From a virus: a DNA stretch of 47,390 bases. The notes beneath the pieces are model-generated. The model saw nothing but the letters and a program-made list of their open reading frames with translations. It had not been told where the DNA came from and searched no databases. This document shows positions 3,701 to 30,539 of the stretch, in pieces. Positions within the stretch are counted from its first letter, which is position 1. The number at the start of each line of letters is the position of its first letter. The translations under genes were made by a program, and so were the position numbers. The stretch is taken from the UHGV virus genome UHGV-1361924, one strand, 5' to 3'.

Positions 3701-3712
3701 ATTTACAATAAA

Positions 3713-4003: not shown

Positions 4004-4028
4004 AAGATTTCTCCGAGAGGTTTCATTT

Positions 4029-4070
4029 TAATCTACGCCATGCTAGAATCTACGTCAAGGCGCATTGACA
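4029..4070. promoter_or_regulatory. divergent promoter region with two tandem AATCTACGYCA motifs (minus: TTGACG-17-TAGATT) and plus-strand TTGACA
   Basis: taatctacgcca / gaatctacgtcaa / ttgaca at 4065..4070; conserved leader ctacatcaccgggg before ATG 4092. Confidence 0.5.
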
Positions 4071-4091
4071 TAACTACATCACCGGGGCATC

Positions 4092-7920: not shown

Positions 7921-7933
7921 TGGCGGCTTCTGT

Positions 7934-8125
7934 TTATCTTTTTCTTATAGCTGATTTTAAAATGCAGTAAGGCCATGCAAGGCTTGAAAGGAACATGATA
8001 ATAAAAACCAATAGCGCGCGATATAATCCATCAATTGATTTGATTAAATCTCTTACACTCATGTAAAGACCAGGAAAATCAATCACGCAGCCAATGAAAA
8101 CATACAGCAAAACCAAATAAATCAT
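7934..8125 (-). CDS. small membrane protein
   Basis: 63 aa, hydrophobic. Confidence 0.3.
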   Translation of the reverse strand: MIYLVLLYVFIGCVIDFPGLYMSVRDLIKSIDGLYRALLVFIIMFLSSLAWPYCILKSAIRKR

Positions 8126-8231
8126 ATCAATCCTCCAGCTTCATGCCCGGCACTTTTCCAGCGGCAACGAGGTCGTAAATTTCCTCGGCGACAGCCTGGC
8201 ACCATCCTGTTAACATAATTGTTTTCACCGC

Positions 8232-9439: not shown

Positions 9440-9470
9440 TCAATCTACGTCAATAGGATTATGATAAAAT
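9440..9470. promoter_or_regulatory. promoter/operator: TCAATCTACGTCAATA + extended -10 TGATAAAAT (plus) ; TTGACG -35 on minus
   Basis: 30-bp block nearly identical to 21050..21079; conserved leader ctgcatcaccggagg before ATG 9495. Confidence 0.55.
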
Positions 9471-10174: not shown

Positions 10175-10643
10175 CTGGAAAGTTGTTGCGGCCATTATCG
10201 GCGTAGCGCTTCTGGCATTGATTATCTACGGAAAGTGGGTCAATTACGGGAAGGCGAAATATAACTCTGGATATCTGGCCGCCGTAGAGGCGCAGAAGGT
10301 CAAAGACAAAGAGGCGAGCGAACAACATGAGCAAGACAAAAAGACCATCGAGCAGGAAGCGCAGAGTCGCATTGATGCCGCGCGTGCTGATGCTTCCGCT
10401 GCTGCTGTTAAGTCTGGCAGGTTGCAGCAACAGCTCGCCACAATCAGAAAGCAGCTCCTCGGTTATTCCCGCACTGAGTCCATTGGCAATCCAGCCTCAA
10501 ACACCGGAGTTTTGCTCTCCCAGCTGCTCAGCGAATCTGTCGAAAGAAATCGACAGCTGGCAGAATATGCTGACTCAGCAAGAGAAGCAGGATTGACTTG
10601 TCAGGCACAATACAACTCCCTGCGCAATAAAAAAGCCCCGTAA
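10149..10643 (+). CDS. i-spanin (Rz-like)
   Basis: N-terminal TM, periplasmic coiled-coil; contains embedded lipoprotein ORF. Confidence 0.7.
   Translation: MILQILKANWKVVAAIIGVALLALIIYGKWVNYGKAKYNSGYLAAVEAQKVKDKEASEQHEQDKKTIEQEAQSRIDAARADASAAAVKSGRLQQQLATIRKQLLGYSRTESIGNPASNTGVLLSQLLSESVERNRQLAEYADSAREAGLTCQAQYNSLRNKKAP
10327..10596 (+). CDS. o-spanin (Rz1-like lipoprotein) embedded in +1 frame of i-spanin
   Basis: lipobox LLSLAGC, Pro/Ser-rich mature part. Confidence 0.65.
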   Translation: MSKTKRPSSRKRRVALMPRVLMLPLLLLSLAGCSNSSPQSESSSSVIPALSPLAIQPQTPEFCSPSCSANLSKEIDSWQNMLTQQEKQD

Positions 10644-10658
10644 AGGGGCTTTGTTTTA
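10630..10658 (+). terminator. rho-independent terminator
   Basis: aaagcccc-gtaa-aggggcttt + T-run. Confidence 0.7.
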
Positions 10659-11980: not shown

Positions 11981-12027
11981 TATTGACTAATCTACATCAT
12001 CTAGTCAATACTTAATGACGTAGATTA
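11981..12027. promoter_or_regulatory. divergent promoter/operator with nested inverted repeats (tattgacta/tagtcaata and aatctacatca/tgacgtagatt)
   Basis: seen directly; lies between divergent operons. Confidence 0.55.
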
Positions 12028-12769: not shown

Positions 12770-13001
12770 TGAGGGGATTCTAGAATGCCCCTTATGCCAG
12801 GCTACTATCTCGCATGCAGAGCAAGCATATTTTGAGCTATCACCAGTTGGGTGGGTGGTTGAGTGCTACGAGTGCGGATGCACAACAGGAAAGCATGCAA
12901 CAAAAAACGGCGCCATTGAGTCATGGAACACCAGAAACGGCCACCTCTATACCGCTGATGACTACAAACAGGATGCAATGGAGCGCGCAAATGGACTTTA
13001 A
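12750..13001 (+). CDS. Lar-family restriction alleviation protein (zinc ribbon)
   Basis: CPLC...CYECGC and AIESWNTR signature. Confidence 0.65.
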   Translation: MKPMMNDEGILECPLCQATISHAEQAYFELSPVGWVVECYECGCTTGKHATKNGAIESWNTRNGHLYTADDYKQDAMERANGL

Positions 13002-13461
13002 AACGCAAATACTCACGGTGATAGAGCGCTGCGGCGGCGCAACCAATGCGATGATACGAAAGCAGACTGGCATGACAAACCGAGCCAGCGTTACCGGCTA
13101 TCTGATTGAGCTGGAGGGTATGGGATTTATTATTAAAGAGGAAAGCGTCAGCTATGGCAGGCGCTGCTTTAAGTATTTCCTCAATCCCGATAATACTGCG
13201 CTTGACCTGGCAATTCAGACGTACCTTGAGGCGAATCCTGGGCGCAAGAGCAAGCAGATAGCAGAGGCTGTCGGCGTCAACTACACCATCCTCAAGGCGC
13301 GCATGCGCTATCTGGCAAGCATTGGTCAGGTTGACCGTGAAATGCTTCCAGGCGGTGCATGGAAATATTACTGGCAGGAGATCATCCCGTTTGGTATGAG
13401 CCGTGACAGGATGATGTTTGAAAAGCTGCTTGCCGGGGCGCGTCAGTCATGTGGGCGATAA
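12991..13461 (+). CDS. DNA-binding protein with two winged-helix-like domains
   Basis: RBS GGAG 7 nt before ATG 12991; wH-like segments; ORF-track 5' extension rejected. Confidence 0.5.
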   Translation: MDFKTQILTVIERCGGATNAMIRKQTGMTNRASVTGYLIELEGMGFIIKEESVSYGRRCFKYFLNPDNTALDLAIQTYLEANPGRKSKQIAEAVGVNYTILKARMRYLASIGQVDREMLPGGAWKYYWQEIIPFGMSRDRMMFEKLLAGARQSCGR

Positions 13462-14284: not shown

Positions 14285-14407
14285 ATGCCAATCATACTGA
14301 TATCATTCTTTGCTACTCTTTTCGCTTTTACCGCATCTCCGCTTTACCTTCTCGCGTCCATTTCGTGGTGCATATTCATGGTGTGTTATAATCCGGGCAT
14401 AAAGTAA
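14285..14407 (+). CDS. small hydrophobic peptide (40 aa)
   Basis: strong RBS CAGGAGG; overlaps extended -10 promoter. Confidence 0.3.
   Translation: MPIILISFFATLFAFTASPLYLLASISWCIFMVCYNPGIK
14384..14392 (+). promoter_or_regulatory. extended -10 promoter TGtTATAAT
   Basis: gtgtgttataat 30 nt upstream of ATG 14423. Confidence 0.5.
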
Positions 14408-14422
14408 GCGCGGAGAAAGGTC

Positions 14423-15823
14423 ATGATTGTCAAAATTGGCGACAAGTGGGTCGTTAAATCTAAGGATGGCTCGCACCAGTTTGGCGAGTACGACACCGAA
14501 GAGGCGGCGAAAAAGCGCCTTGCTGAGGTGGAGGCATTCAAGCACATGAATAATAAATTACAGGTTAACATCCTGTACACCGTCAACTCAGCCAGCAACA
14601 TCAGTGAAAAAATCATTGATGGCGACCCGCATTATGTCATCAAGAATGTTGTGCCGGTTGTGGATGATATTGTCATGAATGGCGGCCTGTACCCTGGCGA
14701 TGAGATTAAAAAATCATTCCATGGGCTTGATGGGAAACCGGCTCCATATGACCACCCGAAGATTGACGGCAAATACGTATCAGCCAACATGACACGGGCC
14801 GCCAATCAGTTCAGCGTTGGTGCATGGATTGAGAACTCATCTCATGACGGCAGCAAAGCACTGGTAGACCTTTACATCAACAAAGTGGTAGCCGAGCGCT
14901 CTGATAAGGGCCGGGAATTGCTGTCGAGAATTGATGGCCTCAAAGTTAACAGCGCCGATGCTGAACCTGTTCAGGTGTCCACGGGCCTGCTGCTCAACCG
15001 CGAGCAGGCATCAGGAACTTCCAAGGGTAAAAAATATTCCTGGATTGCCAGAAATATGGAGTGGGATCACCTCGCCATTCTTCCACCTGGCATTCCCGGT
15101 GCTGGCGGCCCTGCTGATGGTGTCGGTATCTTTGCTGCTAACGGCGAAGACATTGGGCGCGTTGTAGTCAACCTTGAGGAATCGGCAATGACCGACGAAA
15201 GTGTAAACAAAATAAAATGGTGGCAGCGCGCCATCAATCGACTTACTGGCAACCAGCTGTCATTCACCGATATTACTGAGCAGCTCCGCAATATCATCAA
15301 GGCCGAGATGCCAGCCGACTCATGGCCTTATATCGTCGCCGTTTATGATAATTACTTCGGTGTTGAGATTGACGGCACCATTTATATGCAGTCCTACATC
15401 GTCCGTGAGGATATGGTAGAATTAGTCGGTGAACGGGTTAAGGCTGTTTATAAAACAGAGCTTGAACCGGTAAAAGCAACTCAAGGGGAAATCTCAATGA
15501 CTAACGAGGAATTACAGGCTGTACTGGCCGACGCCCTCAAACCGGTTCAGGAATCGTTGACCGCAGTCAACCAGAAACTGGCCGATGTGGAGGCGCAAAA
15601 CAAAACCCTGCGCGACCAGTTGCAAGCCAATGCCGCACAGGAAGAAACCGCAATGCGCGCCGCCATTATGGCTAAGCTGAAATTGCCGGAATCTGCTGTT
15701 AATGCGCTGACTGGCGAAGCACTGCGTGAAACCTATGCGCTCACCAGTAAAGCGGCTCCGATTTCCGGCGGGTTCAAGCCGAACCGTGCCGAAGAGGATT
15801 TTGATATGGAGGCACCTGAATAA
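14423..15823 (+). CDS. prohead protease / scaffolding fusion protein
   Basis: 466 aa; N-terminal conserved phage domain then long coiled-coil C-terminus; located before capsid gene. Confidence 0.55.
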
Positions 15824-16298: not shown

Positions 16299-17387
16299 AT
16301 GGAAAAGATTATCTTTACGAAAGGCCTGATCACCAACTCGCAGGTGGTTAAAGAGCAATGGCGTCACCTGACCGTTGACCGCAAGGTTTTCATCAATGGT
16401 GAAAACGCTCTGGCGAAAGAATACGGCGTAAACGCCACCGCACTGGTAACGAAAGACTACTGGCGCGAAGTGGATGACGTGACCACCCGTGTATTCCGCA
16501 ACGAGTCCGGCATGGATATGATGGCCGACCTGATGACGCTGGCGACCAACATCAACATCGGCAAGACCGTGGCAATCAGCCGCATGGCTTCCGACGCTGG
16601 TAAGGTTGTGCGCACCATCTCCGGGCAGGAGCCTGAAGACCTGGATAAAACCCGCTACTCCTACAGCGGCGATGTAATCCCGATCTTCAAAACCGGTTAT
16701 GGCCGCGAGTGGCGTGAGCTACTGGGCATGCAGTCTGAAGGTTTCGACCCGCTGATTGATGACCAGGAAAGCACCACCTTCAACCTGCGCGCAGACATGG
16801 CGGATTATCTGCTGGTCGGCGATGCAAGCCTGAACGTGAACGGCGTTTATACTGCTTACGGCATCACCAACCACCCTAACACCGTGCAGCTTAACCTGAG
16901 CGCTTCGGGCACTGGTGCGCTGAACATCGACCTGCAAACCGCGACCCCTGATGAAATCGTTGAGTTCTTCAACCAGGATTTCCAGGCGGTTCTCGATGCG
17001 CAGAACGTGTTCGAGCCGGTTACTCTGTGGGTTTCTCCGTCCGTGCGCCGCTCCTTCAGCCGCCCGTACTCCAACGCGGCAGGCTTCAAAGGCGGCACCA
17101 TTGAGGATTACATCCTCGCATTCGGCAAAACCGGCAACGTTGGCCGCATCGCGTCTATCGGCACCAACTTCAAACTGACCGGGAACCATTTCGTCGGCTA
17201 TGTGAAGAATGCGCTGTATATCCGCCCTCGCGTCGCTCAGCCGGTATCTACCTATGCAGAGCCGCGTACCACGCCGCACGCTAACTTTAACTTTTTAACG
17301 TGGGCTGCTATGGGTTTGCAAATACGGCGCGATTATTCAGGAAAATCAAAGGTTTTCAACGGGTATGGAACACAAACAGCGTTGTAA
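16299..17387 (+). CDS. major capsid protein
   Basis: 362 aa, position and size. Confidence 0.7.
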   Translation: MEKIIFTKGLITNSQVVKEQWRHLTVDRKVFINGENALAKEYGVNATALVTKDYWREVDDVTTRVFRNESGMDMMADLMTLATNINIGKTVAISRMASDAGKVVRTISGQEPEDLDKTRYSYSGDVIPIFKTGYGREWRELLGMQSEGFDPLIDDQESTTFNLRADMADYLLVGDASLNVNGVYTAYGITNHPNTVQLNLSASGTGALNIDLQTATPDEIVEFFNQDFQAVLDAQNVFEPVTLWVSPSVRRSFSRPYSNAAGFKGGTIEDYILAFGKTGNVGRIASIGTNFKLTGNHFVGYVKNALYIRPRVAQPVSTYAEPRTTPHANFNFLTWAAMGLQIRRDYSGKSKVFNGYGTQTAL

Positions 17388-17391
17388 TTGA

Positions 17392-17420
17392 TAAAGGGGG
17401 CGTTAGCCCCCTTCTTTATA
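17392..17420. terminator. bidirectional terminator
   Basis: aagggggc-gtta-gccccctt. Confidence 0.65.
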
Positions 17421-18239
17421 TCTTATCTCGCCATATACCATCCATTGAAGCATATAGCACCACTCCCATTCTGTAATATCATCCCTTAACCATCGGCTAT
17501 TCTTTTTGAAGTTGTACTCGGCTGGCTCAGCTTTAAGGTTATGCAAGCAATTAACTAGCTCTGGATACACAAGCTCATTCTTAACAAACCAGTTAACAGG
17601 AAGAATATGGTCAATATGCCAGGAGCTTCTATTATCAAAGCTCATCCATGCCTCCATTGTTGACTCTATATGGTTAATAAATTCATCCTTTGAGTAACCA
17701 AGAACTTCATCAACGCTTGAATCAGAAAGAATGGCGCCAATCTTGACGTCCATCCTTTCCAGAGTCTTCCTCAGCAACCTATGGTGTGGATTGTCTGTCG
17801 CCCATTGCTTTACGTTTTGCAGTGCCTTTGCGTTACCATTTTTTGAGTAATACCATTTACGATAAATCTTCCTTTTCTTCTCCAAAAACTCCTCGCGCCT
17901 CAAAGGGTCTTCTCTCATCCTTTTGCTATATTTGGAGCCATTAAGCGACCTCCTTCTCCTGTTTTCTTCCTTTGAGTAATATTTATCATATGATTTTTTC
18001 CGGCTAATGCGCTCCCTTTCCTGCCCCTCACTTGTTGCGCGCTTGGCTCTGGTGAACTCATACAAGCAATCCTTGCATCTTCCTCCGCCGGCAGTAAAAA
18101 AGGTGACACAACCACATTTTGCGCATGGTATTTCAGTGCAGACAAACTGCTTTAATCCCTGCTCTCTGGCTTTAATAGCCAGTTCTTTTCTTGTAGCCAT
18201 AGTGTAATCCTTGCTGATTTGGTTTTGCCATCTTAGCAC
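17403..18239 (-). CDS. HNH homing endonuclease with N-terminal zinc ribbon
   Basis: WHIDHILP..N..N HNH motif; CxxC..CxxC N-terminus; opposite strand inside late operon. Confidence 0.6.
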   Translation of the reverse strand: MLRWQNQISKDYTMATRKELAIKAREQGLKQFVCTEIPCAKCGCVTFFTAGGGRCKDCLYEFTRAKRATSEGQERERISRKKSYDKYYSKEENRRRRSLNGSKYSKRMREDPLRREEFLEKKRKIYRKWYYSKNGNAKALQNVKQWATDNPHHRLLRKTLERMDVKIGAILSDSSVDEVLGYSKDEFINHIESTMEAWMSFDNRSSWHIDHILPVNWFVKNELVYPELVNCLHNLKAEPAEYNFKKNSRWLRDDITEWEWCYMLQWMVYGEIRYKEGG

Positions 18240-18254
18240 ATCTATATGTCATGT

Positions 18255-18263
18255 GTTATAATT
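18255..18263 (+). promoter_or_regulatory. extended -10 promoter TGtTATAAT
   Basis: catgtgttataat 30 nt upstream of ATG 18292. Confidence 0.5.
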
Positions 18264-18291
18264 AATCAACATCAAAATAGAGGTATTTATC

Positions 18292-18486
18292 ATGGCTAAA
18301 TATGAAGTAATCGCCAGCGGAATCTTCGTCAAGGATAAAGACGGTCGCCTGCGTGAGCTTGCTATTGGCGATATCATTGACGAATCAAGCCCACACATTG
18401 AGTCAAAACTTCGCCCGGTTAGTGAGAAAGTTCTGGAAGTTGCAACTCCGCAAGAATCGCAGCCAAAGGCGAAGAAAACCAAGTAA
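18292..18486 (+). CDS. hypothetical small protein
   Basis: 64 aa followed by terminator. Confidence 0.45.
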   Translation: MAKYEVIASGIFVKDKDGRLRELAIGDIIDESSPHIESKLRPVSEKVLEVATPQESQPKAKKTK

Positions 18487-18488
18487 AA

Positions 18489-18517
18489 TAAACCCGCAAA
18501 CAAGCGGGTTTTTTATT
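18489..18517 (+). terminator. rho-independent terminator
   Basis: aacccgc-aaacaa-gcgggtt + tttttatt. Confidence 0.7.
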
Positions 18518-18526
18518 GGGGGATTT

Positions 18527-19348
18527 ATGGCTATCAGATACGAAATTTTTACCACTCCGACTGATGGAGAGGTATTGTTGGGTGAAAGGATGTCACCTGA
18601 CTGGACGGCGCTACAGGTCAACGTTGTGCCACTGGATGCGTCAGGAAACTACACGCCATTCACAAGCGGCACGGTTGCTGTCAAGGTGTCACCCTTTGAT
18701 TCCGGCGATTACTGGATTGACGTCAACAATAATAATTATTATGGCGTCGCTTTGCGCCTGAAAATCGTCAAGAGTCAGTTACCAGCGGCAGTGGCATCAT
18801 TGCGCGTTCTCATCTGGCGCGCTGATATCGCACCACCGGCCAGCAGCCTTACTGTGCAATCATACATAGAGAGAGCCAATAAACAAGGCAAGCTGTTTAC
18901 CGCATCACGTCGTGTTGATGCGGTTGCAGGCTCCGCCAACCTCGATAGCATTTTCATCACCGGCGCTAAGCAAGTTATTTTTAATCAGCGCATTATCGGT
19001 TACACCGGCAAGGGTGTTATCGCGTCAATTTATCGCGGAGCGGTTGCGACTGGCGGAACGGCTGCGGAGATAAACAACCCCAACGATATAACGCCGCAAG
19101 CAGTTACCGCGCAGCTCCTGACCGGCGCTACAGTGACAAGCATCGGCCAGCTAACCATTGCGGCGGCGTATAGTGAAGGTAACGCATCGAATCAGGGGCA
19201 AGGTAATTCGCAGGCCATATTGGGTGAACGCGTTATCATGGCACCAAACACCACGTATCTTCTGCGCATCACGTCGCTTGACACAGCAGCACAAAACATT
19301 AACGCCTATGTGTCCTGGTTTGAGGATGATACTTATATCAATGGGTAA
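18527..19348 (+). CDS. putative structural protein (273 aa), Ala/Thr/Gly-rich
   Basis: late-region ORF, start ATG 18527. Confidence 0.45.
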   Translation: MAIRYEIFTTPTDGEVLLGERMSPDWTALQVNVVPLDASGNYTPFTSGTVAVKVSPFDSGDYWIDVNNNNYYGVALRLKIVKSQLPAAVASLRVLIWRADIAPPASSLTVQSYIERANKQGKLFTASRRVDAVAGSANLDSIFITGAKQVIFNQRIIGYTGKGVIASIYRGAVATGGTAAEINNPNDITPQAVTAQLLTGATVTSIGQLTIAAAYSEGNASNQGQGNSQAILGERVIMAPNTTYLLRITSLDTAAQNINAYVSWFEDDTYING

Positions 19349-19352
19349 ATGA

Positions 19353-19378
19353 TAAAGCCCCGTGAGGGGCTTATTTGC
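19353..19378. terminator. bidirectional terminator
   Basis: aagcccc-gtga-ggggctt. Confidence 0.6.
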
Positions 19379-19571
19379 GATTCTTAATATAATGCTGCTT
19401 TGCAATATACAGCATCTCATCAAACGCTTTTCCGGTTACACTACGGCACTGTCGGTAATGCTGCAAAGCAGCCTCAATGGCTGAATTGTCAATGCCAGGC
19501 AGTTTTTCGCGCAGGTTTTTCTCTATGAATTGTTCGGGATTCATTACCAACTCTCCACCACGTTTGCGCAT
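19371..19571 (-). CDS. hypothetical protein
   Basis: 66 aa. Confidence 0.4.
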   Translation of the reverse strand: MRKRGGELVMNPEQFIEKNLREKLPGIDNSAIEAALQHYRQCRSVTGKAFDEMLYIAKQHYIKNRK

Positions 19572-19741
19572 TCATCATAAAATAAGAAATGCCTTGTTTT
19601 TTCTTCGTAACGCTTCATTTCAAACGCGATTATGTCCTCCTGATAGTGAATTTTCTCCACCTGGCGAGCCACTCCGTCTCGCATTAGGATGTGATCGCCT
19701 TCTTTTATGTTTTTTGCAGCAGTGCCAATTGTAATCATCAC
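19544..19741 (-). CDS. hypothetical protein
   Basis: 65 aa. Confidence 0.4.
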   Translation of the reverse strand: MMITIGTAAKNIKEGDHILMRDGVARQVEKIHYQEDIIAFEMKRYEEKTRHFLFYDECANVVESW

Positions 19742-20553
19742 AGCTTCTCCAGAATCGCCAGCACTTCACTCAACTCCGCAGAAGGAAGGCGCAAAAATTC
19801 TTCTGTCTCCTGTGCCACATGGCCCTCAGCGACAACCATGTGATCTGCTTCTTTCAGCAACTGAATCAGGCGGTCAATCGGCTTAACTTTTTTGGCTTTG
19901 AGCGTTTTCGCCGTCACCTTATCCTTGCCTTGCGCTTTCGCTTCCTCAACGGCAGCATCAATAACGTTAACGGCATCATCGCCATGCTCGCGCGCCACTG
20001 CAACGGCGTTGGCATAGCTGATTTGTCCTGCATTGATGCGCTGCTTGATGGCATCAGGTACATCACCAAGTGACAGGTGCATCTGCACATCAGAAACAGA
20101 GCGGCCGACCTTCTTGGCGATTTCTTCATTCGTCCATCCAAAACCTTTCAGGCGCACATAAGCCTTTGCACGCTCAAGCGGGTCAAGCTGCTTGCCCTGA
20201 CTGGATGACACCATGAAGGCGATTTTATCCGCTTCATCGCCGGTGAAGTCTTTGCACTCAATGCGCGCAATTGGTACGCCGCGCTCAATGGCACGCAATG
20301 CGCCAAGGTAGCGATGCTGACCATCAAGAATCTTGATGCGCTTACCATCGGCATCAGGAATAACAGTTAATGCCGGGATTGGCTGCCCCGATTCCCAGCA
20401 CTGCGCGAAGTATTCGACGTGCGCAGGGTCGGCGTCGCGGATGTTGTATCCAGGCTCAAGGTAAAGCTGGTCCACAGGAACCTGATAACCCTTGTTAACC
20501 ACGATTCCGCCGCGAGTCTCTTTGTCTGCATAAATTTTATTGAGAGATGTCAT
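19738..20553 (-). CDS. ParB N-terminal-domain (ParB/Srx nuclease-like) protein
   Basis: KILDGQHRYLGALRA motif; C-terminal K/A-rich region. Confidence 0.7.
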   Translation of the reverse strand: MTSLNKIYADKETRGGIVVNKGYQVPVDQLYLEPGYNIRDADPAHVEYFAQCWESGQPIPALTVIPDADGKRIKILDGQHRYLGALRAIERGVPIARIECKDFTGDEADKIAFMVSSSQGKQLDPLERAKAYVRLKGFGWTNEEIAKKVGRSVSDVQMHLSLGDVPDAIKQRINAGQISYANAVAVAREHGDDAVNVIDAAVEEAKAQGKDKVTAKTLKAKKVKPIDRLIQLLKEADHMVVAEGHVAQETEEFLRLPSAELSEVLAILEKL

Positions 20554-20562
20554 TTATTCCTC

Positions 20563-20677
20563 ACTTTGATAAACATATTGCGCTTGCAATTGCAAAGCCG
20601 ATAACGATTAACACAAGTTTTACTTTAAACTTACCCCATGCTTTCAGGTCTTGCTGACGGATTTCGTGGCGAATCAT
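20563..20677 (-). CDS. small membrane peptide (38 aa)
   Basis: ATGA coupling to upstream gene; C-terminal TM. Confidence 0.3.
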
Positions 20678-21012
20678 TTGGTTTCTCCGAGCGCTTTGGC
20701 GATTGCGGCACGCGCTTTGTCATATGGGCACATGCATGTAAAACCATTGTGGCCGCATGACTTATTACCACCTGTTTGCTCAGCCATTAATAATTGAAGT
20801 GCTTCCAGCAATTCAGGTGCGGCTGCTATCAGATTGGCATTAGCTACTTGAATTTCTATCTCCGGATCAAACTCAACATAAGCCACTTCAATTATCATCC
20901 CAAAACTTTGGTCATCAAGACCACTGACAGGGCCGATGCCCCTTCCAGTCTTGCTTGCCACCCACGGCCCCGGCGTACCTTTAAAACCTTTCATCTTCAT
21001 CACCTCTAACAT
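20674..21012 (-). CDS. hypothetical protein with conserved C-terminal NANLIAAAPELLEAL motif
   Basis: 112 aa; first gene of minus operon. Confidence 0.5.
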   Translation of the reverse strand: MLEVMKMKGFKGTPGPWVASKTGRGIGPVSGLDDQSFGMIIEVAYVEFDPEIEIQVANANLIAAAPELLEALQLLMAEQTGGNKSCGHNGFTCMCPYDKARAAIAKALGETK

Positions 21013-21028
21013 TTATTGTTGTTTCTAC

Positions 21029-21079
21029 GTCATCACTATAGCGACACCCTCAATCTACGTCAACACTTTATGATAAAAT
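21029..21079. promoter_or_regulatory. divergent promoters: minus TTGACG-17-TATAGT ; plus motif TCAATCTACGTCAACA + extended -10 TGATAAAAT
   Basis: seen directly; 30-bp block shared with 9440..9470. Confidence 0.6.
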
Positions 21080-21224
21080 TAAACCAACAACACTCACCCC
21101 GCGCTGTTCCGTCCTGAAAAACGTAAGGCGGCGAAATTGGATATAGCAATCGGCGTTATCGTCATAGCGTTTTCGCTGGTTCAGGTGTACAGATGCTGGA
21201 AGTTCATCATTCGGAGAATAATTA

Positions 21225-21512
21225 ATGAGAGACGCGCTTCAGCACGCCGCAAACCAGATAATTAGTGGCACTGTCGGCCAGGTAATCGACAAGGCCGGTT
21301 ATACATCCATCGGCACTGGTCTTGGCCTGAAGGTGGCAGAGCAGACGCCGGTCGCACAATCATACATTGCCTCAATGATCCCCCATTCGATTACCGAGTG
21401 GGCAGCGGTAGCCTCTATACTTGGCGCGCTGTCACTGGTGGCAAAAAACCTTTTTGAGATGTGGTGGAAGATTCGGGAGAGCAAAAAGAATGGCAGCACC
21501 GACAGCAAGTGA
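21225..21512 (+). CDS. hypothetical protein with one TM segment
   Basis: 95 aa. Confidence 0.45.
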   Translation: MRDALQHAANQIISGTVGQVIDKAGYTSIGTGLGLKVAEQTPVAQSYIASMIPHSITEWAAVASILGALSLVAKNLFEMWWKIRESKKNGSTDSK

Positions 21513-21882
21513 ACTCGTCGCCGCCATGGCGTCAAGAGGCGTAACTATCACCACGGCAGATGCAACTGGCATCCTGTGTCTGGTAGCGAGCATCACAGAG
21601 TGCCTTGAACTTAATTACCCTGAAGACACATGCAGACAGGATGCAATTCTGCTATGGGCATCCATCCTGATCGCCTCAAATACAGCCGGGAGATACATCA
21701 CCAGCCACCGGGCGCCATCTGGTGCGTCGCAATCATTTGGCTATGGAAGCAAGCCGTGGATGGCCCTTTACAATCAGATGAAGCTACTCGATACGGCAGA
21801 CTGCACAGGAGACCTTGTGGAAGAGCCTGATGGAAGTGCAAAGCCGTGGTTTCGGGTTGTTACCGGGAGTAAGTGCAGATGA
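21490..21882 (+). CDS. putative head-tail connector/neck protein
   Basis: position in neck module; start at ATG 21490 with GGGAGAG RBS. Confidence 0.4.
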   Translation: MAAPTASELVAAMASRGVTITTADATGILCLVASITECLELNYPEDTCRQDAILLWASILIASNTAGRYITSHRAPSGASQSFGYGSKPWMALYNQMKLLDTADCTGDLVEEPDGSAKPWFRVVTGSKCR

Positions 21883-22000
21883 AAACGTCAACATTAACTG
21901 TAAATATCGAAATCCGTAAATGGTGCATGCCGTTGCTGATTATCCTGGTATTGCTGCGCCTTCCTGTTCCACGCTGGGTTTATACTCTTGAGGCCGCACC

Positions 22001-22345
22001 ATGTCAGCAATAGCCAGATGGACTTACACATATCCATGCACAATCTGGCGGCTTACTGGCAAGGATAAGTATGGCAAGCCAACATTTGCCGCGCCAGAAT
22101 CCATCATGTGTGATTATGGCTTCGATAAGAATCTGACAACTGGCACAGCTGGCAATGAGATTGCACAGAAAAACACATTCTGGACGGAGTATCAGGATGC
22201 GTCTGTTGGCGACTTCATCATGCTTGGCACCGTCACAAGTGCTGACCCTCTAGCCGCCGGAGCTGACCAGATTAGAAACGTAGTGAATTACGGCAACACA
22301 CTAAATCGTAACGACCTTCCTGATTTTGCGCTGGTAACGGGGTAA
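22001..22345 (+). CDS. putative head-tail adaptor/head closure protein
   Basis: 114 aa, position. Confidence 0.4.
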   Translation: MSAIARWTYTYPCTIWRLTGKDKYGKPTFAAPESIMCDYGFDKNLTTGTAGNEIAQKNTFWTEYQDASVGDFIMLGTVTSADPLAAGADQIRNVVNYGNTLNRNDLPDFALVTG

Positions 22346-22449
22346 TGTATGAGCAGAAGAGAGAGACTTTTGAAGTGCGCGCAGCTTAATCTTGACTTGA
22401 TGCGGTTAGGTGTCAAACCCATCTGGCAACTGCATTACTGGATGAAATA

Positions 22450-22866
22450 ATGGCCGCCAAAATGCGAGGTATCCAGCAGGCGATTAAGCGCACTCAGCAG
22501 ATAGTCGGCGAGATTACTGGCGAGAAGGCGGTATCAGCAATAAAAGCCGCCAACTACATCATCAGGACTGAATCGGCGTCTATGACTCCAGTAGCTACAT
22601 CGGCGCTGATAAACAGCCAGTATGACACCGTTGAGGTTAATGGCACTCGCATAACCGGCAAGATTGGATATGCTGCTAATTACGCCCTGTATGTCCACAA
22701 TGCACCAGGTAAATTGCTTGGCACGAATACGCCGCGCACAGGACGACTCAAAGGAAAGGGTAACGTGTGGGATAAAAGCGGCGAGCCTAAATTCCTTCTC
22801 AAGGCTGGCGAAAACACACGCGAGCTTGTCGATCAGGTAATTAAAAAAGAGATGACGCTAAAATGA
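22450..22866 (+). CDS. putative neck/tail completion protein
   Basis: 138 aa, position. Confidence 0.4.
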   Translation: MAAKMRGIQQAIKRTQQIVGEITGEKAVSAIKAANYIIRTESASMTPVATSALINSQYDTVEVNGTRITGKIGYAANYALYVHNAPGKLLGTNTPRTGRLKGKGNVWDKSGEPKFLLKAGENTRELVDQVIKKEMTLK

Positions 22867-23246
22867 GAGATATGCTTGAGCTTGTTGACCAGTACCTTAG
22901 CGATGCCGGTCTTTATGATGGGTGGACTTCTCAGCTTGAGTTCTGGAATGATACCGAAGTTGGCACAGATCGGTTTATGGTGCTGCAATCCAATGGCGGC
23001 ACGAACGTAAGCAAAGACCTCGGCAATGATTATTATTTTTCGCTCTATGTTGTCGGCCAGCAGGGTCAGTACAACATCGAGGAGACAAAAGCAAAAGCGC
23101 TTGATGTCATCTCATATATCAAAGAGCATCCCGTTGATAGTTGCATTGGCATGATTCAGTTGCAGGCGCCGCTTGGTCGTCCAACACTCACTACAGAGCA
23201 GAGACCGGTTTACGAGTTGTTTCTGAGGGTTGTTTTTGGTGAGTGA
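22863..23246 (+). CDS. putative tail terminator protein
   Basis: 127 aa, last gene before tail genes; ATGA coupling. Confidence 0.4.
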   Translation: MRDMLELVDQYLSDAGLYDGWTSQLEFWNDTEVGTDRFMVLQSNGGTNVSKDLGNDYYFSLYVVGQQGQYNIEETKAKALDVISYIKEHPVDSCIGMIQLQAPLGRPTLTTEQRPVYELFLRVVFGE

Positions 23247-23323
23247 TGGTTCCCGCGACAGGATTCGAACCTGTAATCATCCGATTATGAGTCGGGTGCT
23301 TTAACCAGTTAAGCTAAACGGGA
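23247..23323 (-). tRNA. tRNA-Met (anticodon CAT; could be initiator/elongator or Ile2-type)
   Basis: revcomp gives T-loop GGTTCGAATCC, D-stem GCTT/AAGC, anticodon loop CTCATAA, encoded CCA; two stem mismatches (7-66, 27-43). Confidence 0.6.
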
Positions 23324-23326
23324 ATT

Positions 23327-23403
23327 TGGTGCACCATACTGGATTCGAACCAGTTACCGATTGCTTAGAAGGCAATTGCTCTATCCTGATGAGCTAATGG
23401 TGC
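23327..23403 (-). tRNA. tRNA-Arg (anticodon TCT)
   Basis: perfect cloverleaf: acceptor GCACCAT/ATGGTGC, D-stem GCTC/GAGC, AC-stem ATTGC/GCAAT loop CTTCTAA, T-arm ACTGG-TTCGAAT-CCAGT, CCA encoded. Confidence 0.8.
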
Positions 23404-23877
23404 GTTTATTGTTGTGGTGGCAGCACACCTAGCCGCACGTTTTCAGTAAAGTTACATCAGGTGATCAGTCTGACGCTGTTAGGGCGTGAGATTTATGCCC
23501 CGCATTCACCACAACGGAAAGAGCACTGCCTAGATACTAGGTCCATTTCCTAACGGAAAATTCAATGCTCTTACCTGTTGTGTGTTGTGACTACTAACCC
23601 AGGAACCCATTACCGCGCTTTGGCTCGACCTTTTTACAGGTTGGTGAATGTATTTCATCCGCTTGCATTCATATGTTTTGCTTTCGTCACAACGGAAATG
23701 GCGCTACACTTTGCTTCGTACTCTGTGGCAATCATGTCCACTATGTAAACCTGCAACGCCATTTCCTGTTATGTGCTGGCGTCTCACATTAACAGTAAAC
23801 CGAATGCCACCTGTTAATGTCCCTGCATTCTGCGACCAGCAAAGTAAATCTACACCACCATTCCGCGCCTGTCAACA

Positions 23878-23886
23878 TGATATAAT
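23878..23886 (+). promoter_or_regulatory. extended -10 promoter TGaTATAAT for tail genes
   Basis: catgatataat 35 nt upstream of ATG 23921. Confidence 0.55.
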
Positions 23887-23920
23887 ACGATTGTTTAGCT
23901 AAACACAGAGGATTCTAAAC

Positions 23921-24676
23921 ATGGCTATTTGTGCAAATGACAACGGCATCATCACAGGTCGCCAGTCGCTCATTGAGCTGGCTGATGGCTGCTGGGATGC
24001 CGTTCCCGCAGAGGAAGACTGGAAGTTTTTCGCCCCTATGACATCGAAAGGGGTCGACTTCAGCCCGAGCACCACTACTTCAGAAGCCGATGATGGCGAT
24101 GGTTTTGTTGCCACTCTGGTAACGACTGCTGACCTGACCATTTCTGGAGACTTCGAGGTACGCAAGGCTGACAAAGCTGATGAGTATGGCGTGCATAACC
24201 TCATCAAATACTTTGTAACCGAAGTTAAAGCGCGTCGTCAGCCGTCTGTCTGGGTTCGTCAGACCACCGGTAACACCGTTGTTGTGGCCTACTGCAACAT
24301 CACCGCGCTGAGCTATGACGGCGGCACCAACGACATCATCACCGGCTCTGTTGAGTTCAAGCCGTATGATGGTTCCACCGTTGACGTGTCCAGCATTGAA
24401 GACCTGACGCTGACTACCGATATCGCCGCCACACTTAGCGTTGCGACTGGTGCAACTCTGACGCTTGGCCCGGTTGTCGCCGCTGGCGGTGTTGAGCCTT
24501 ACACTTATCAGTGGTACAAAGGCACATCTCCGATTAGTGGCGCAACTTCTGCCACATATACCAAGGCAACCGCCGCTGCTGGTGATGCTGGCACGTACTT
24601 CTGCCGCGTTACTGACTCAGCAACCAGTCCTGATTACGTTGACTCCACCAAGTGTGTTGTTACCGTTACGGCATAA
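23921..24676 (+). CDS. major tail protein with C-terminal Ig-like (Big_2-type) domain
   Basis: 251 aa; C-terminal YQWYKGTSPISGATSATYTKA...GTYFCRVTD Ig-like motif. Confidence 0.7.
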   Translation: MAICANDNGIITGRQSLIELADGCWDAVPAEEDWKFFAPMTSKGVDFSPSTTTSEADDGDGFVATLVTTADLTISGDFEVRKADKADEYGVHNLIKYFVTEVKARRQPSVWVRQTTGNTVVVAYCNITALSYDGGTNDIITGSVEFKPYDGSTVDVSSIEDLTLTTDIAATLSVATGATLTLGPVVAAGGVEPYTYQWYKGTSPISGATSATYTKATAAAGDAGTYFCRVTDSATSPDYVDSTKCVVTVTA

Positions 24677-24677
24677 A

Positions 24678-24705
24678 GAAAACCCCCGAAAGGGGGTTTA
24701 TAGTT
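24678..24705. terminator. bidirectional terminator
   Basis: aaaccccc-gaa-agggggttt. Confidence 0.7.
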
Positions 24706-24886
24706 TATGTGGAACAAGTTTATATTGTTTGGTCTTTTTGCATTTATCACACGTTACGAATCGCCGGGTAAATGCATATCCATTCTGTCCAGCCATTGGG
24801 GCGCCGCAGGCAGCCAGGTTATCATTGCGCCCACTCTCAACATGAATTTTTTTACCTGCATACGGGTGTCCATTACTCATCATCAT
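24698..24886 (-). CDS. small zinc-ribbon-like protein
   Basis: start at MMMSNG; CxxC...CDKC. Confidence 0.4.
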   Translation of the reverse strand: MMMSNGHPYAGKKIHVESGRNDNLAACGAPMAGQNGYAFTRRFVTCDKCKKTKQYKLVPHKL

Positions 24887-25148
24887 CCTCCTCACTAATC
24901 GCAGTATCGAGTTGACGGCGAAGCATACACAGCGCGCCATGCGGCATAAACTGTGAAACCATTCCGTCGAATATCTGGCGGTTTAATTTATTATCAATGC
25001 GCGGCCTGATTGCAGACCAGCATGACCGTATAGCGCGATTAACCGGACGGCGGTCGAGCATTGCGAGTCGCGCAGCTAGCTCAATAGTCACGAGTGCATC
25101 AAGATACTGCTCACAGGCGTAGCGGCCTTCATCATCCATTATTATCAT
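24873..25148 (-). CDS. hypothetical acidic protein
   Basis: 91 aa. Confidence 0.4.
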   Translation of the reverse strand: MIIMDDEGRYACEQYLDALVTIELAARLAMLDRRPVNRAIRSCWSAIRPRIDNKLNRQIFDGMVSQFMPHGALCMLRRQLDTAISEEDDDE

Positions 25149-25259
25149 CCTGCATCATGAGAAATACTATCATGGCGGCGCGGAGTGGGTTTTTATGGTT
25201 CATGCGATGCTTAACATATGCAGGCTTGAATTGCGCTCGCCATGTTTTCTCGTGCCTGT

Positions 25260-25487
25260 TCACCACAATACATTCCAGAGAAATGCCATTATTAACAATA
25301 ATCGGCCATGCATCTGCTGGGTTGTTGCATGGGTCAAATTTACACTTAAATTCCCGTTATCAAAAAAGAAAAAACCATCGTTATTAATATGCGCAAGCCC
25401 ACCATTTTGGCAAAAATCATTACTAAGCCAAAAGAATACTTTTTGCGCAACTTCTATATCACTCATCTTGCTGTAATCAGTGCTCAT
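25260..25487 (-). CDS. hypothetical protein
   Basis: 75 aa; crosses T-homopolymer. Confidence 0.35.
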   Translation of the reverse strand: MSTDYSKMSDIEVAQKVFFWLSNDFCQNGGLAHINNDGFFFFDNGNLSVNLTHATTQQMHGRLLLIMAFLWNVLW

Positions 25488-25618
25488 CTCTTATCCTCCA
25501 CCACTACGCCAATCTTAGCCAGCAACAAAATCGCCTTTACGCGGGCCTCTTCATAGGTGTAACCCTGATCGATGTAAAGGTCGATGTAAAATCTCAAATC
25601 AGAATCAGTCTCGTTCAT
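25486..25618 (-). CDS. small ORF (43 aa), first gene of minus moron operon
   Basis: ATGA coupling. Confidence 0.3.
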
Positions 25619-25647
25619 ATGTCAAACCCTCAATCACCTTATGCTTT

Positions 25648-25687
25648 CAATCTACGTCAGTCTTGCTCTCCCTGTCAATGGTATAAT
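25648..25687. promoter_or_regulatory. promoter: TCAATCTACGTCAG motif + extended -10 TGgTATAAT (plus); TGACG -35-like on minus
   Basis: seen directly. Confidence 0.5.
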
Positions 25688-25715
25688 TACGTCATTATGA
25701 AAACAGGATTTAGAC

Positions 25716-26423
25716 ATGAGACAACGCACACCGCTAACAGAAATCGGAGAGATGCGCATCTACCTGGATGACAAGTCTTTTTTCTTCAAACCATCATTTG
25801 CGGCGATGAATGAGCTTGGCTCACCAAAAGAGATTGTCGAGCTGTACGTTACGCTTAATGGCTATGAATACGCGGCCATACTCGGCGCCATTCAGTCAAT
25901 GCCATATGGCGCGCAGATTCAGGTGGCAAAAATCCTGTCACGTCCTGCCTATGGTAAGAAAGTGCTCAGCGCCGCCTGCCTCATCATGCAGTCCTGTTGT
26001 GATGATGATATCTCGGTGCTCATTGGGTCATGGAAGCCGACTCCGCGCGGTGTGAAGTACGTCACCGGAAGAATGCCAGTAAATGACATTATTATTATTG
26101 CTCGCAACCTGATGGAGCATGGCATCATCGGCAAGTCTCCACTCAAGGTTCCTCAGCGCTCGGAAAACCAAAAGCGCACAACCAGTGAGTTGAGAATGTC
26201 GGATTACATCATCTCAGCTCGCACTCACTTCGGAATCACCCGTGAGGAAGCCGAAGACCTGACCATGACCGAGTATCAGCAGATGATAAAATCAAAATAC
26301 CCGGAACCGGAAGGCATGACGCGCGAGCAGTATGATGCGTCTTATGAACGGGCTAAGCTGAATAAACAGAAACTGAAAGAGAAAGCCGCCAGAAAGGCCG
26401 CTAAAAGCAAAGGAGCAAAATAA
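25716..26423 (+). CDS. tail assembly chaperone (no frameshift site identified)
   Basis: position between major tail and tape measure; K-rich C-terminus; ATGG overlap with TMP start. Confidence 0.5.
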   Translation: MRQRTPLTEIGEMRIYLDDKSFFFKPSFAAMNELGSPKEIVELYVTLNGYEYAAILGAIQSMPYGAQIQVAKILSRPAYGKKVLSAACLIMQSCCDDDISVLIGSWKPTPRGVKYVTGRMPVNDIIIIARNLMEHGIIGKSPLKVPQRSENQKRTTSELRMSDYIISARTHFGITREEAEDLTMTEYQQMIKSKYPEPEGMTREQYDASYERAKLNKQKLKEKAARKAAKSKGAK

Positions 26424-29347: not shown

Positions 29348-29375
29348 AAAAAGCCCCTTATGGGGCTTCTTTCAT
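29347..29375. terminator. bidirectional terminator
   Basis: aaaagcccc-ttat-ggggctt. Confidence 0.65.
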
Positions 29376-30437
29376 TATCTCGCTCATTAATTCAGGTGAG
29401 TATCTTAACCATTCTGTTGCTCCATCAAATCCTGCCAGTCCTGCGCTTTCGTATTTCTTATGATAATACTTTTCAATGCGCATGGCTTCGACTCCGGTTG
29501 TTTTTATCTTTGCTATCAGGTTGAAGTCGAATGGTGTTCCTGATTTAAGTTGCGATAATCTTTTTCTGATTTTATTAGTTATTCCAACCTTAATAATTCC
29601 ATCGGCCATCAAGAAATACACATATCCGGTCAATGATGGATTATATCCACCTTTTGAACAAGAAGGGCAGCCACTACCTTTCATATGTGTATTTGGTGAT
29701 TGCATGAATATCCCATGAATAGGGCAGACTATTTTTACCTTACTCATTACATTTCTATAATCAACAAGATGATAGTCATATCTTGAATCGTGAATTTTAT
29801 TTGATCTGATGATGAACTCACCTACCTTTAAAGTTCTTCCTTCAACTCTAGACTGAATGCCACATGACGGACACCCCTTGCCGTTTACATGTGATATGGC
29901 TCTCTGAGTAAATAACCCGTGTATGTTGCATTTAATATTAACATCGGCATCCATGCCATTAAAATTAGCAGCAGAGTAATCATATCTCAATCCATGTCTA
30001 GAAACAGCCCTAGAAATAAAACTATCAATAGAATGCGTTTTCTTTTCGGATATCCTTTTATATCCGCACAATCTACACCCTAAACCTCCAAGGTGTTTAT
30101 AAGGAAGCTGATTGAAATCCCCATGGGTTGCGCATGTTATTGTTATTTTCGTGTGTGAGTTTATATATTCAACTTTAGAATAATCATAAGAGTCACCATG
30201 TTTTGCAATCGCATCAGCCACAAACTCACGCGTTGTTTTCCTCTTACCTCCAGAGCATGATGGGCACCCGGACCCATTCAAATGAGCACCTGGAGTTTGC
30301 TCAAAATCACCGTGATAATGGCAGGTTATAATTATCTTTATCTTTGAGCCAGTGTACACGGATTTATCATAAATGTACTTATCGCCATGGATGGCTTTAG
30401 CTTTTGCTATAAACTCTTCTGTGGTGAGCTTGCGCAT
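29358..30437 (-). CDS. T5orf172-domain (GIY-YIG-like) protein with four tandem CHC2-like zinc-ribbon repeats; putative homing endonuclease/DNA-binding protein
   Basis: repeat consensus YDY..V.Y.....KI.I.C..HG.F.Q.P..H..G.GCP.C x4; C-terminal GYVYFLMADGIIKVGITNKIRKRLSQL; start at ATG 30437 with GAGG RBS (ORF track start 30500 lacks RBS). Confidence 0.6.
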   Translation of the reverse strand: MRKLTTEEFIAKAKAIHGDKYIYDKSVYTGSKIKIIITCHYHGDFEQTPGAHLNGSGCPSCSGGKRKTTREFVADAIAKHGDSYDYSKVEYINSHTKITITCATHGDFNQLPYKHLGGLGCRLCGYKRISEKKTHSIDSFISRAVSRHGLRYDYSAANFNGMDADVNIKCNIHGLFTQRAISHVNGKGCPSCGIQSRVEGRTLKVGEFIIRSNKIHDSRYDYHLVDYRNVMSKVKIVCPIHGIFMQSPNTHMKGSGCPSCSKGGYNPSLTGYVYFLMADGIIKVGITNKIRKRLSQLKSGTPFDFNLIAKIKTTGVEAMRIEKYYHKKYESAGLAGFDGATEWLRYSPELMSEIMKEAP

Positions 30438-30539
30438 TTGGAATCCTCGGTTAAAGGTGGTTTGAAGTGATGCAGCAGGCGATAACCAATCGCTTTTCAT
30501 CTGGCCGGACTAGCTGCACTTATGATTGTACCATCAACG

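Follow-up and report, generated by a model that had tools for sequence, protein, structure and literature searches.

We analysed the virus genome UHGV-1361924, a stretch of 47,390 nucleotides (nt) that is referred to here as the window, with a focus on a five-gene operon on its minus strand (19371-21012) whose central gene encodes a ParB-like protein. On balance, we lean towards the view that this is a family-typical early operon, and that it supplies an orphan DNA-binding protein of the ParB type with a regulatory or organising role in the phase of genome entry. For any specific DNA target of this protein our confidence is much lower.

Structure, promoter and conservation of the operon

The region from 17000 to 23500 shows about 90% nucleotide identity to the Klebsiella phages RCIP0071 and BUCT610 and matches 214 phage records, chiefly of phages of Salmonella, Klebsiella and Escherichia. 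The matching phages are siphoviruses of 45-48 kb from the Roufvirus and Skatevirus group. The gene order of the window was derived by projecting the BUCT610 proteins onto it. A plus-strand block carries the terminase, portal, lysis and head genes, including the major head gene (16299-17387); the neck genes start at 21225, the major tail gene at 23921 and the tape measure gene at 26423. These rightward structural genes are broken up by several leftward clusters of small genes. The five-gene operon is placed after the major head gene and two more plus-strand genes, and before the DUF7370 and HK97-gp10-like neck genes.

All five open reading frames (ORFs) of the initial annotation are present; the longest ORFs on the minus strand are 20674-21012, 20561-20677, 19738-20553, 19544-19741 and 19371-19571. 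In this order, the junctions between the genes are ATGA, a 7-nt spacer with GAGGAA, TGATG and TAATG, and the genes therefore form a translationally packed operon. Two of the products had to be redefined. The first ORF exists with the proposed 112 amino acids (aa), but translation likely starts at its third ATG (20994) and yields 106 aa, since the codons for 'MLEVM' belong to a leader that is conserved where the first gene is unrelated, and since a GAGGTG Shine-Dalgarno sequence is located 7 nt upstream of the third ATG. The last two products had been given about 65 aa each. This is correct for gene 4 (64 aa), while gene 5 likely encodes 57 aa from an ATG at 19544 that overlaps the gene 4 stop as TAATG. 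The phrog_4439 match begins at residue 10 of the longer gene 5 ORF, and the product from 19544 matches BUCT610 gp37 over 57/57 residues. Of the features described before, DGQHR, the NANLIAAAPELLEAL motif and the hydrophobic peptide of 38 aa were all recovered. The features of the operon, all on the minus strand, are as follows:

21086..21108, minus strand: terminator-like hairpin just upstream of the promoter (terminator scan)
21035..21063, minus strand: sigma-70-type promoter, -35 hexamer 21063-21058, -10 hexamer 21040-21035
21054..21062, minus strand: box 1, TGACGTAGA, in overlap with the -35 hexamer; member of the genome-wide TGAYGTAGATT family
21024..21032, minus strand: box 2, TGACGTAGA, immediately downstream of the -10 hexamer, at a distance of 30 nt to box 1; repeat family D2
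20674..20994, minus strand: gene 1 (slot 1), 106 aa, PF27050/phrog_1273 family with the ANANLIAAAPELLEAL motif
20561..20677, minus strand: gene 2, basic peptide of 38 aa whose C-terminus is a hydrophobic helix; start codon in overlap with the stop of gene 1 (ATGA)
19738..20553, minus strand: gene 3, 271-aa orphan protein, predicted to be of the ParB/KorB/Noc type
19544..19738, minus strand: gene 4 (variable slot), 64 aa; its ATG overlaps the ParB stop as TGATG
19371..19544, minus strand: gene 5, 57 aa, phrog_4439; second conserved gene of the operon
19355..19372, minus strand: intrinsic terminator AAGCCCCTCACGGGGCTT after gene 5 (terminator scan; -12.1 kcal/mol, z = -2.9)

The promoter TTGACG-17-TATAGT at 21063-21035 was recovered by a promoter scan with 10/12 matches. 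It is of a strong sigma-70 type, unlike the sequences preceding the structural genes. Promoter-like sites as such are not in excess in the region (13 vs. 8.9 ± 3.2 in shuffles). The promoter core TTGACGTAGATT has 13 matches with up to two mismatches in the window, compared to 3.1 ± 1.8 expected, and this number was reached in none of 100 shuffles; among all words of 11-14 nt in the window, TCAATCTACGTCA(A) is over-represented most strongly. Clear copies of the motif are intergenic and located upstream of non-structural clusters (3698/3681, 4057/4040, 9452, 11999/12016, 21062/21032, 25659 and 44666). Where two copies are 17 nt apart, the first gives TTGACG (-35) and the second TAGATT (-10). TGAYGTAGATT is conserved across genera and also precedes the exonuclease, recombinase and helicase clusters of BUCT610 and of the Salmonella phage SB28 (Macdonaldcampvirus). 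At the operon itself, the hexamers and the intervening stretch are identical or nearly so in BUCT610, YX3973, Bas77, BS5 and seszw, and about 85 nt of promoter and leader are about 90% conserved across clades while the adjoining coding sequence is replaced. Box 2, possibly an operator or a piece of the initial transcribed region, is kept in all six aligned relatives; its SB28 version reads TGATGTAGA. Taken together, these sequence data support a real promoter of the class driving non-structural genes. Its near-consensus sigma-70 form is what suggests early timing; the literature on relatives contained no transcript-timing data that we could find.

The initial annotation had described the operon as inserted and its position as unusual. 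This could not be upheld, because the operon is found at the same site in all Skatevirus- and Roufvirus-like relatives examined. In BUCT610, YX3973, VLCpiS13f, Bas77, BS5, seszw and Akira it likewise follows the head genes and precedes those for the membrane protein and DUF7370, and at least six leftward cassettes, this operon included, carry the same promoter motif. The ParB gene is conserved at 75-98% identity across the phage family, and in Bas77, YX3973 and VLCpiS13f methyltransferase genes abut its stop codon. Position by position, the operon compares with its relatives as follows:

Promoter: TTGACG-17-TATAGT here; conserved in relatives
Slot 1: phrog_1273 here; phrog_14587 'anti-restriction protein' in Skateviruses and VLCpiS13f; EaC in Akira
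Small protein: 38-aa peptide here; similar or larger small protein in relatives
ParB-like protein: 271 aa here; conserved in relatives
Variable slot after ParB: 64-aa ORF here; N6/N4 or C5 methyltransferase, HNH, endonuclease VII or small ORFs elsewhere
phrog_4439: 57 aa here; present in BUCT610 and Bas77, where checked
Last gene: absent here; often a RusA-like gene in relatives

As judged from these comparisons, the operon is a conserved, family-typical and ancestral accessory unit of fixed position and not a sporadic insertion, and slot 1, behind the promoter, leader and RBS cassette, and the position after ParB are exchange slots with swapped accessory genes.

Some further observations concern the regulatory elements. 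The motif regions of the window are 3671-3699, 4030-4058, 9442-9453, 11989-12026, 21024-21063, 25649-25660 and 44665-44676; TGAYGTAGATT(GA), 11-14 nt long, marks most promoters of non-structural clusters and is often paired at a distance of 17 or 30 nt. A conserved MarR-like protein (12991-13458) is one candidate binder of it. A promoter at 44665-44693 (TTGACG-17-TATAGT), which drives a rightward small-gene cluster from 44725, is a near-duplicate of the operon promoter, including the leader and the ribosome-binding site (RBS; AGAGGTGATGAAG; region 44630-44735), and the region looks like a reused promoter/RBS cassette. The extended -10 element TGTGTTATAAT was considered as a 'late' promoter class and is not significantly enriched (4 vs. 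1.1 expected, equalled in 4 of 100 shuffles). Identical copies of TGTGTTATAAT at 14382-14392 and 18252-18262 (plus strand) precede two blocks of structural genes and may belong to a separate class of promoters. The terminator at 19372-19355 lies between gene 5 and the convergent plus-strand gene 18530-19348, and its hairpin could be a bidirectional terminator; the stem AAGCCCC...GGGGCTT is common to three terminator hairpins (10633-10651, 19355-19372 and 29351-29368). The hairpin at 21086-21108 is present in Klebsiella-clade relatives and absent from Skateviruses, and might perhaps insulate the operon from leftward read-through.

The ParB-like protein and its possible roles

The ParB N-terminal domain with DGQHR that had been assigned to the central product is indeed present. 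Gene 3 encodes a ParB/Srx N-domain (DGQHR at residues 77-81), a ParB-type helix-turn-helix (HTH; about 122-203) and a small C-domain (about 225-270), which probably mediates dimerisation. In the Pfam scan, HTH_ParB scored 43.3 bits (cut-off 22.6) and KorB (PF08535) 27.9 bits (cut-off 22.3) for residues 139-196, the latter overlapping the generic ParB HTH match; PHROGs assigned the protein to phrog_1033 (E = 5e-87). The closest solved structures by sequence are Spo0J (1vz0, E = 3e-11), the Caulobacter and Myxococcus ParB proteins, Noc and KorB (E = 1e-4). An AlphaFold2 (AF2) model, based on an alignment of 24 sequences, reached a pLDDT of 87. Foldseek aligned this model with Noc 7nfu, KorB 8qa9, ParB 6t1f and Spo0J 1vz0 at E values of about 5e-9 over roughly 190-240 alignment columns, and the best superposition was obtained with KorB 8qa9 (TM-score 0.72, rmsd 3.3 Å); a sulfiredoxin fold match was confined to the N-domain. 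In the alignment with Spo0J, GQHR falls on GERR, so that the GxxR of Box II (canonical GERRxRA) is kept. In Box III, SSSQG takes the place of ENLQR (canonical ENxQR), with the loss of Glu, Asn and Arg. Within the ParB-like family, the Box II and Box III regions are invariant, and conservation in the family alignment is highest at the columns of the three boxes. Gene 3 is thus predicted from its model to encode a complete orphan DNA-binding protein of the ParB/KorB/Noc type whose nucleotide pocket is modified. Orphan ParB folds of this kind are widespread among phages; they bind CTP, ATP or GTP, with a preference that is unpredictable from the sequence (PMC12704722).

The product had initially been labelled a nuclease-domain protein, and databases annotate it as 'ParB-like partition protein'. 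Neither label is supported, and both a nuclease and a partition function are unlikely. No PF02195 match was obtained at E ≤ 0.1, and in its HTH architecture the protein corresponds fully to DNA-binding ParBs; precomputed PF02195 matches exist solely in distant homologues of gene 3 (about 44% identity). The NCBIfam scan matched the ParB-like protein alone among the five products, with all scores below the cut-offs: TIGR03187 (DndB/DGQHR) gave 17.4 bits for residues 63-106, far below 58.85, and TIGR00180 (partition ParB) 42.9 bits, below 58.45. No ORF with the ParA signature KGGxGK[ST] was detected in the six frames of the window, and ParA was likewise missing from the BUCT610 annotation and from the surroundings of the homologues. 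The ParA-interaction motif (L/F/I)G(K/R)G(L/F/I), including LG[KR]GL, is absent from the gene 3 protein, and neither an integrase nor a repressor was found among the window ORFs scanned or in the BUCT610 annotation. An exhaustive k-mer and palindrome scan of the window for parS, together with a repeat scan of the local region, showed no recurrent palindrome except the terminator stems; such scans address palindromic repeats, and a non-palindromic or single site would escape them. A 12-bp palindrome, TTGCAATTGCAA (20584-20595), was rejected as a parS candidate because it is conserved in no compared locus and its frequency is that expected by chance. No palindromic operator of the KorB type was found; a KorA-like partner was not specifically searched for.

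Lambdoid and P2-like prophages that bear an integrase carry homologues with 44-48% identity in their early accessory regions. There, the homologues adjoin Rad52-type, exonuclease, SSB, Dam, P22 antirepressor-N or CsrA genes, or sit between cII and replication genes. A tblastn search matched 747 plasmid records, 530 of them conjugative, a set that surely includes distant canonical ParBs. One homologue on an IncA/C-like conjugative plasmid (37% identity, E = 2e-38) is oriT-proximal and part of a long unidirectional small-gene array that runs from mobI and contains hok, a methyltransferase gene, mazEF and psiA, which is typical leading-region content. The leading region of plasmid F contains a methylase gene, an antirestriction gene, ssb, the gene for the ParB-like HerB/YfjB and psiB. 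HerB, itself an orphan ParB, becomes loaded onto host chromosomal DNA and reprograms host transcription; it is induced immediately after transfer, forms nucleoid foci that need the CTP pocket and the HTH, and occupies many chromosomal sites without a consensus (PMC13370423, a 2026 preprint). A profile comparison of HerB and gene 3 by hhalign gave a probability of 95% and E = 2e-8 at about 21% identity, over D1-D2 only; the BLASTP E value was 0.12. As a side observation, ParB-like homologues adjoin CsrA-family genes twice, in a lambdoid prophage (7819-8813) and in a Pseudomonas plasmid (11911-13030), where the homologue is followed by CsrA and a gene of the PAPS-reductase family. These neighbours hint at a host-reprogramming gene set.

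In the scenario we favour, host sigma-70 RNA polymerase would probably transcribe the operon upon DNA entry from its promoter of the TGAYGTAGATT class, and transcription would stop at the hairpin shared with the convergent head-side gene. The ParB-like protein would most likely bind DNA as a nucleotide-gated dimer and would regulate or organise DNA in the entry phase, like KorB, BisD, Noc and HerB. A more specific version, by analogy with HerB, is possible though doubtful: the protein, produced in the first minutes after the DNA has entered, may act as a compact switch that loads on the host nucleoid or on the incoming genome and reprograms or silences transcription, with the canonical motif for CTP hydrolysis lost.

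Information on the need for the gene comes from Skatevirus seszw, for which CRISPR genome reduction with designed 100-bp or whole-gene deletions of non-structural genes has been described (PMC9825161). That study makes no mention of ParB; we read its retention from the deposited mutant genomes (about 70 records, including genome-reduced mutants). The ParB homologue (81% protein identity; seszw locus 3504-4313) is present in all of these records, down to genomes of 36 kb. Its sole lesions are two independent 45-bp in-frame deletions, which remove residues 55-69 (N-domain) and 160-174 (HTH region). From the seszw_17 region, the positional counterpart of gene 5, about 170 bp are missing in many viable mutants. 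This pattern suggests selection against a frameshift in, or complete loss of, the seszw ParB gene.

Several points weigh against the role in genome entry that we propose. The viable seszw deletions hit the core of the N-domain and the HTH; they may be functional nulls whose frame was kept for other reasons. SB28 has naturally lost the ParB gene: its locus 14409-14775 holds a 40-aa ORF matching the ParB C-terminus (tblastn, residues 228-271) and a 58-aa ORF behind an intact promoter. The same genome keeps at least 12 TGAYGTAGATT sites, including one at the operon locus, and ParB is therefore neither universally essential nor required by this promoter class. In the CTP pocket, Box III is not conserved, and a clamping mechanism gated by nucleotides may therefore not apply. 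HerB is only remotely similar, with D3 and D4 absent from the phage protein, and the leading-region context comes from a single plasmid examined in detail. In the literature we found no expression, binding or phenotype data for any member of the subfamily and no characterised phage homologue. Finally, we obtained no candidate binding site, as the sole recurrent motif of the genome is the promoter motif, which persists in the ParB-less SB28.

Among the alternatives, an anti-defence island survives best, although we consider it improbable. Here, the ParB/Srx protein would, alone or with its neighbours, neutralise a host defence system such as restriction, for instance by masking, modifying or cutting DNA. 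Slot 1 encodes the phrog_14587 'anti-restriction protein' in Skateviruses and VLCpiS13f, and DNA methyltransferases directly follow ParB in the three phages named above. The plasmid F leading region unites a methylase, an antirestriction protein and SSB with a ParB-like protein, phage ParB-methyltransferase fusions may act in anti-defence (PMC12704722), and the natural loss of ParB in SB28 fits an accessory role. However, the gene labelled 'anti-restriction' is an unrelated one that the window does not contain, and the operon of the window has no methyltransferase either. Moreover, the ParB gene of seszw was never cleanly deleted in about 300 passages, although these used one permissive host, on which a gene for anti-defence should not be needed. 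PADLOC did not match any of the five products, a result of little weight because its library consists of defence and not anti-defence models. In BASEL, Skateviruses were markedly sensitive to restriction-modification (RM) systems (PMC11990801), which lends no support to an effective anti-restriction function at the operon locus in Skateviruses. The exchangeable slots next to ParB are more plausible carriers of anti-defence activity than ParB.

Considerably less probable is a KorB-like global regulator, in which ParB would bind the TGACGTAGA boxes at its own and other early promoters and shut early transcription off. The Pfam KorB match and the best superposition on KorB 8qa9 would agree with this, as would the promoter motif being the sole recurrent element of the genome and the two conserved boxes flanking the core promoter of the operon. 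But SB28 keeps its boxes without ParB, which argues against ParB as a box-binding regulator. In addition, the motif is non-palindromic, its tandem copies 17 nt apart can simply be read as -35 (TTGACG) and -10 (TAGATT), it is absent from the three prophage-type homologue loci compared, and the conserved MarR-like regulator is an alternative binder. Because of SB28 and these three loci, we rejected the promoter boxes as the leading model for the ParB target.

An even slimmer chance is given to a helper function, with ParB as the DNA-targeting or nucleotide-dependent partner of a DNA-modifying enzyme, i.e. a split ParB-methyltransferase fusion. The N6/N4-type and C5-type methyltransferase genes that abut the ParB stop in several relatives and the enrichment of fusions between ParB folds and methyltransferases in phages (PMC12704722) point in this direction, but most relatives as well as the window have ParB without an adjoining methyltransferase, and the ParB protein is highly conserved whatever gene comes next. 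The least credible alternative is that gene 3 encodes a genuine ParB/Srx nuclease or serves partition in a plasmid-like carrier state: ParB/Srx members with enzymatic activity also have a DGQHR-type motif, the TIGR03187 match exists at its low score and the database name speaks for partition, but the profile scores and full HTH architecture described above argue against a nuclease, the window scans found no ParA, ParA-binding motif, parS-like repeat, integrase or repressor, and the prophage homologues sit in integrating phages.

If the HerB-like version applies, one ParB subfamily would be a general establishment factor for incoming DNA, shared by phage early operons, prophage early regions and plasmid leading regions, and the two slots beside ParB would be a ready-made place to seek new anti-defence genes. 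Relatives of this ParB lie in the first-expressed regions of three kinds of mobile elements, and a small, tractable phage protein is well suited for testing orphan ParB folds as establishment or host-reprogramming factors. Likewise, a conserved promoter cassette with exchangeable genes is a compact hotspot for screens for anti-defence and host-takeover genes. Our results also correct a likely mis-annotation ('ParB-like partition protein' or 'nuclease domain') in many of about 200 related phage genomes. Several related phages are under development for therapy against Klebsiella or Salmonella, and the 'partition' label can wrongly imply a plasmid-like or temperate lifestyle.

Other operon products and the surrounding genome

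No structural or assembly homologues were found for any of the five products, in agreement with the initial annotation. Gene 1 belongs to phrog_1273 (E = 6e-23), its sole PHROGs match. It has 1331 homologues, many of them from enterobacterial prophages, and PF27050 is assigned to all that are listed; in this family the ends are conserved, and the middle part and the C-terminus are modular. PF27050 was not reported for gene 1 by the local Pfam scan, which gave no Pfam-A match at E ≤ 0.1, and no PDB fold was matched by its AF2 model (pLDDT 81) at E ≤ 0.001. The slot-1 proteins of Bas77, BS5 and seszw, with which gene 1 shares 15-21% identity, match phrog_14587. An assignment of gene 1 to this 'anti-restriction protein' group was rejected, as it matches phrog_1273 only. 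Gene 1 is also unrelated to the EaC slot-1 gene of relatives. We likewise rejected an Ead/Ea22-like identity, since neither a Pfam nor a PDB fold match was obtained and the name is one source's label for one homologue; the structure of lambda Ea22 has been published (PMC10834534). The C-terminus of gene 1 (20674-20770) contains a Cys/His-rich segment, SCGHNGFTCMCPYDKA, that some PF27050 members share and that gives way to unrelated sequence in other members. This segment may form a small module for metal binding that is swapped within the family.

The gene 2 peptide (pI 10.2, GRAVY 0.61) is 81.6% identical to BUCT610 gp40, and an ORF of identical size is found at the same place in VLCpiS13f. 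Homologues of gene 4 occur in RCIP0071, RCIP0103 and Tbat1_6 only, always immediately after the ParB gene, while gene 5 (phrog_4439, E = 1e-16) has homologues in BUCT610 and Bas77. Searches of Pfam and PHROGs gave no informative homologues for genes 4 and 5. An Rfam scan of 17000-26000 detected two tRNAs only and no non-coding RNA in the operon. The two minus-strand genes (23247-23403), for tRNA-Met (CAT) and tRNA-Arg (TCT), separate the neck genes from the major tail gene and are also present in several relatives.

Between the head genes and the operon, the plus-strand gene 18530-19348 encodes a 272-aa protein of phrog_5335 without a Pfam match. Its homologue is BUCT610 gp35, and the RusA-like gene of other relatives is missing from both phages. 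Two free-standing genes resembling homing endonucleases interrupt the structural module on the minus strand. The first (17403-18239; 278 aa, phrog_1035 'endonuclease VII') is immediately 3' of the major head gene, and the second (29358-30500; 380 aa) has T5orf172/MUG113, DUF723 and zinc-finger domains and is located between the tape-measure and distal tail genes. The replication module (36892-44172) differs from that of BUCT610 despite about 90% identity elsewhere: in the window it encodes an SNF2/DEAD helicase, DUF669, Sipho_Gp157, an AAA_24 ATPase and Prim-Pol/DUF3987, and in BUCT610 SSB, a recombinase, exonuclease VIII and a different helicase. This looks like a swap of the whole module.

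Comparison with known systems

The operon resembles moron and leading-region cassettes in being a self-contained unit from promoter to terminator, on the opposite strand and inside the structural region; close relatives have exchanged its content, and the promoter cassette ahead of it is conserved. It differs from morons in that it is ancestral and position-fixed, with a central gene conserved throughout the family.

For the protein itself, the ParB/Spo0J/Noc group provides the closest structures by sequence (1vz0) and by fold (7nfu, 6t1f and 1vz0) and shares the HTH_ParB domain; Noc is itself an orphan ParB with a non-partition function. In contrast to ParB/Spo0J, gene 3 scores below the TIGR00180 cut-off, has no parA, ParA-binding motif or parS that we could find, and has lost the ENxxR of Box III. 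KorB of the IncP plasmid RK2, a CTP-dependent sliding clamp and repressor, has in common with gene 3 the Pfam domain, the best superposition and the combination of N-domain and HTH, as well as a regulatory rather than a partition role, which for gene 3 is our proposal. Unlike KorB, gene 3 has GQHR instead of GERR in Box II, a divergent Box III and no palindromic operator that was found; no KorA-like partner was identified, and none was specifically searched for. By sequence, gene 3 is nearer to Spo0J than to KorB, as the E values given above indicate. The orphan and fused ParB-CTPase folds of phages (PMC12704722) are likewise encoded outside a parAB operon and have a divergent Box III with GxxR kept. 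The phage-enriched fusions are those with methyltransferases and DUF domains, whereas gene 3 combines a bacterial-type N-domain with an HTH and a C-domain.

HerB of plasmid F is comparable in more respects. Both proteins are orphans with a ParB N-domain and an HTH, encoded among the genes of a mobile element that are expressed first on entry, a timing that is presumed for the phage. HerB has neither a ParA partner nor a parS-like consensus site, and our scans found none for gene 3; both proteins, or their homologues, adjoin methylase, antirestriction and SSB-type genes. HerB has 652 aa with additional D3 and D4 domains that make up its dimer core, compared to 271 aa and a short, unrelated C-domain in gene 3, and it keeps the canonical CTP pocket including the Box III glutamate, where gene 3 has SSSQGK. 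HerB is thus best regarded as a functional analogue of the phage protein, and the comparison is not meant as a family assignment.

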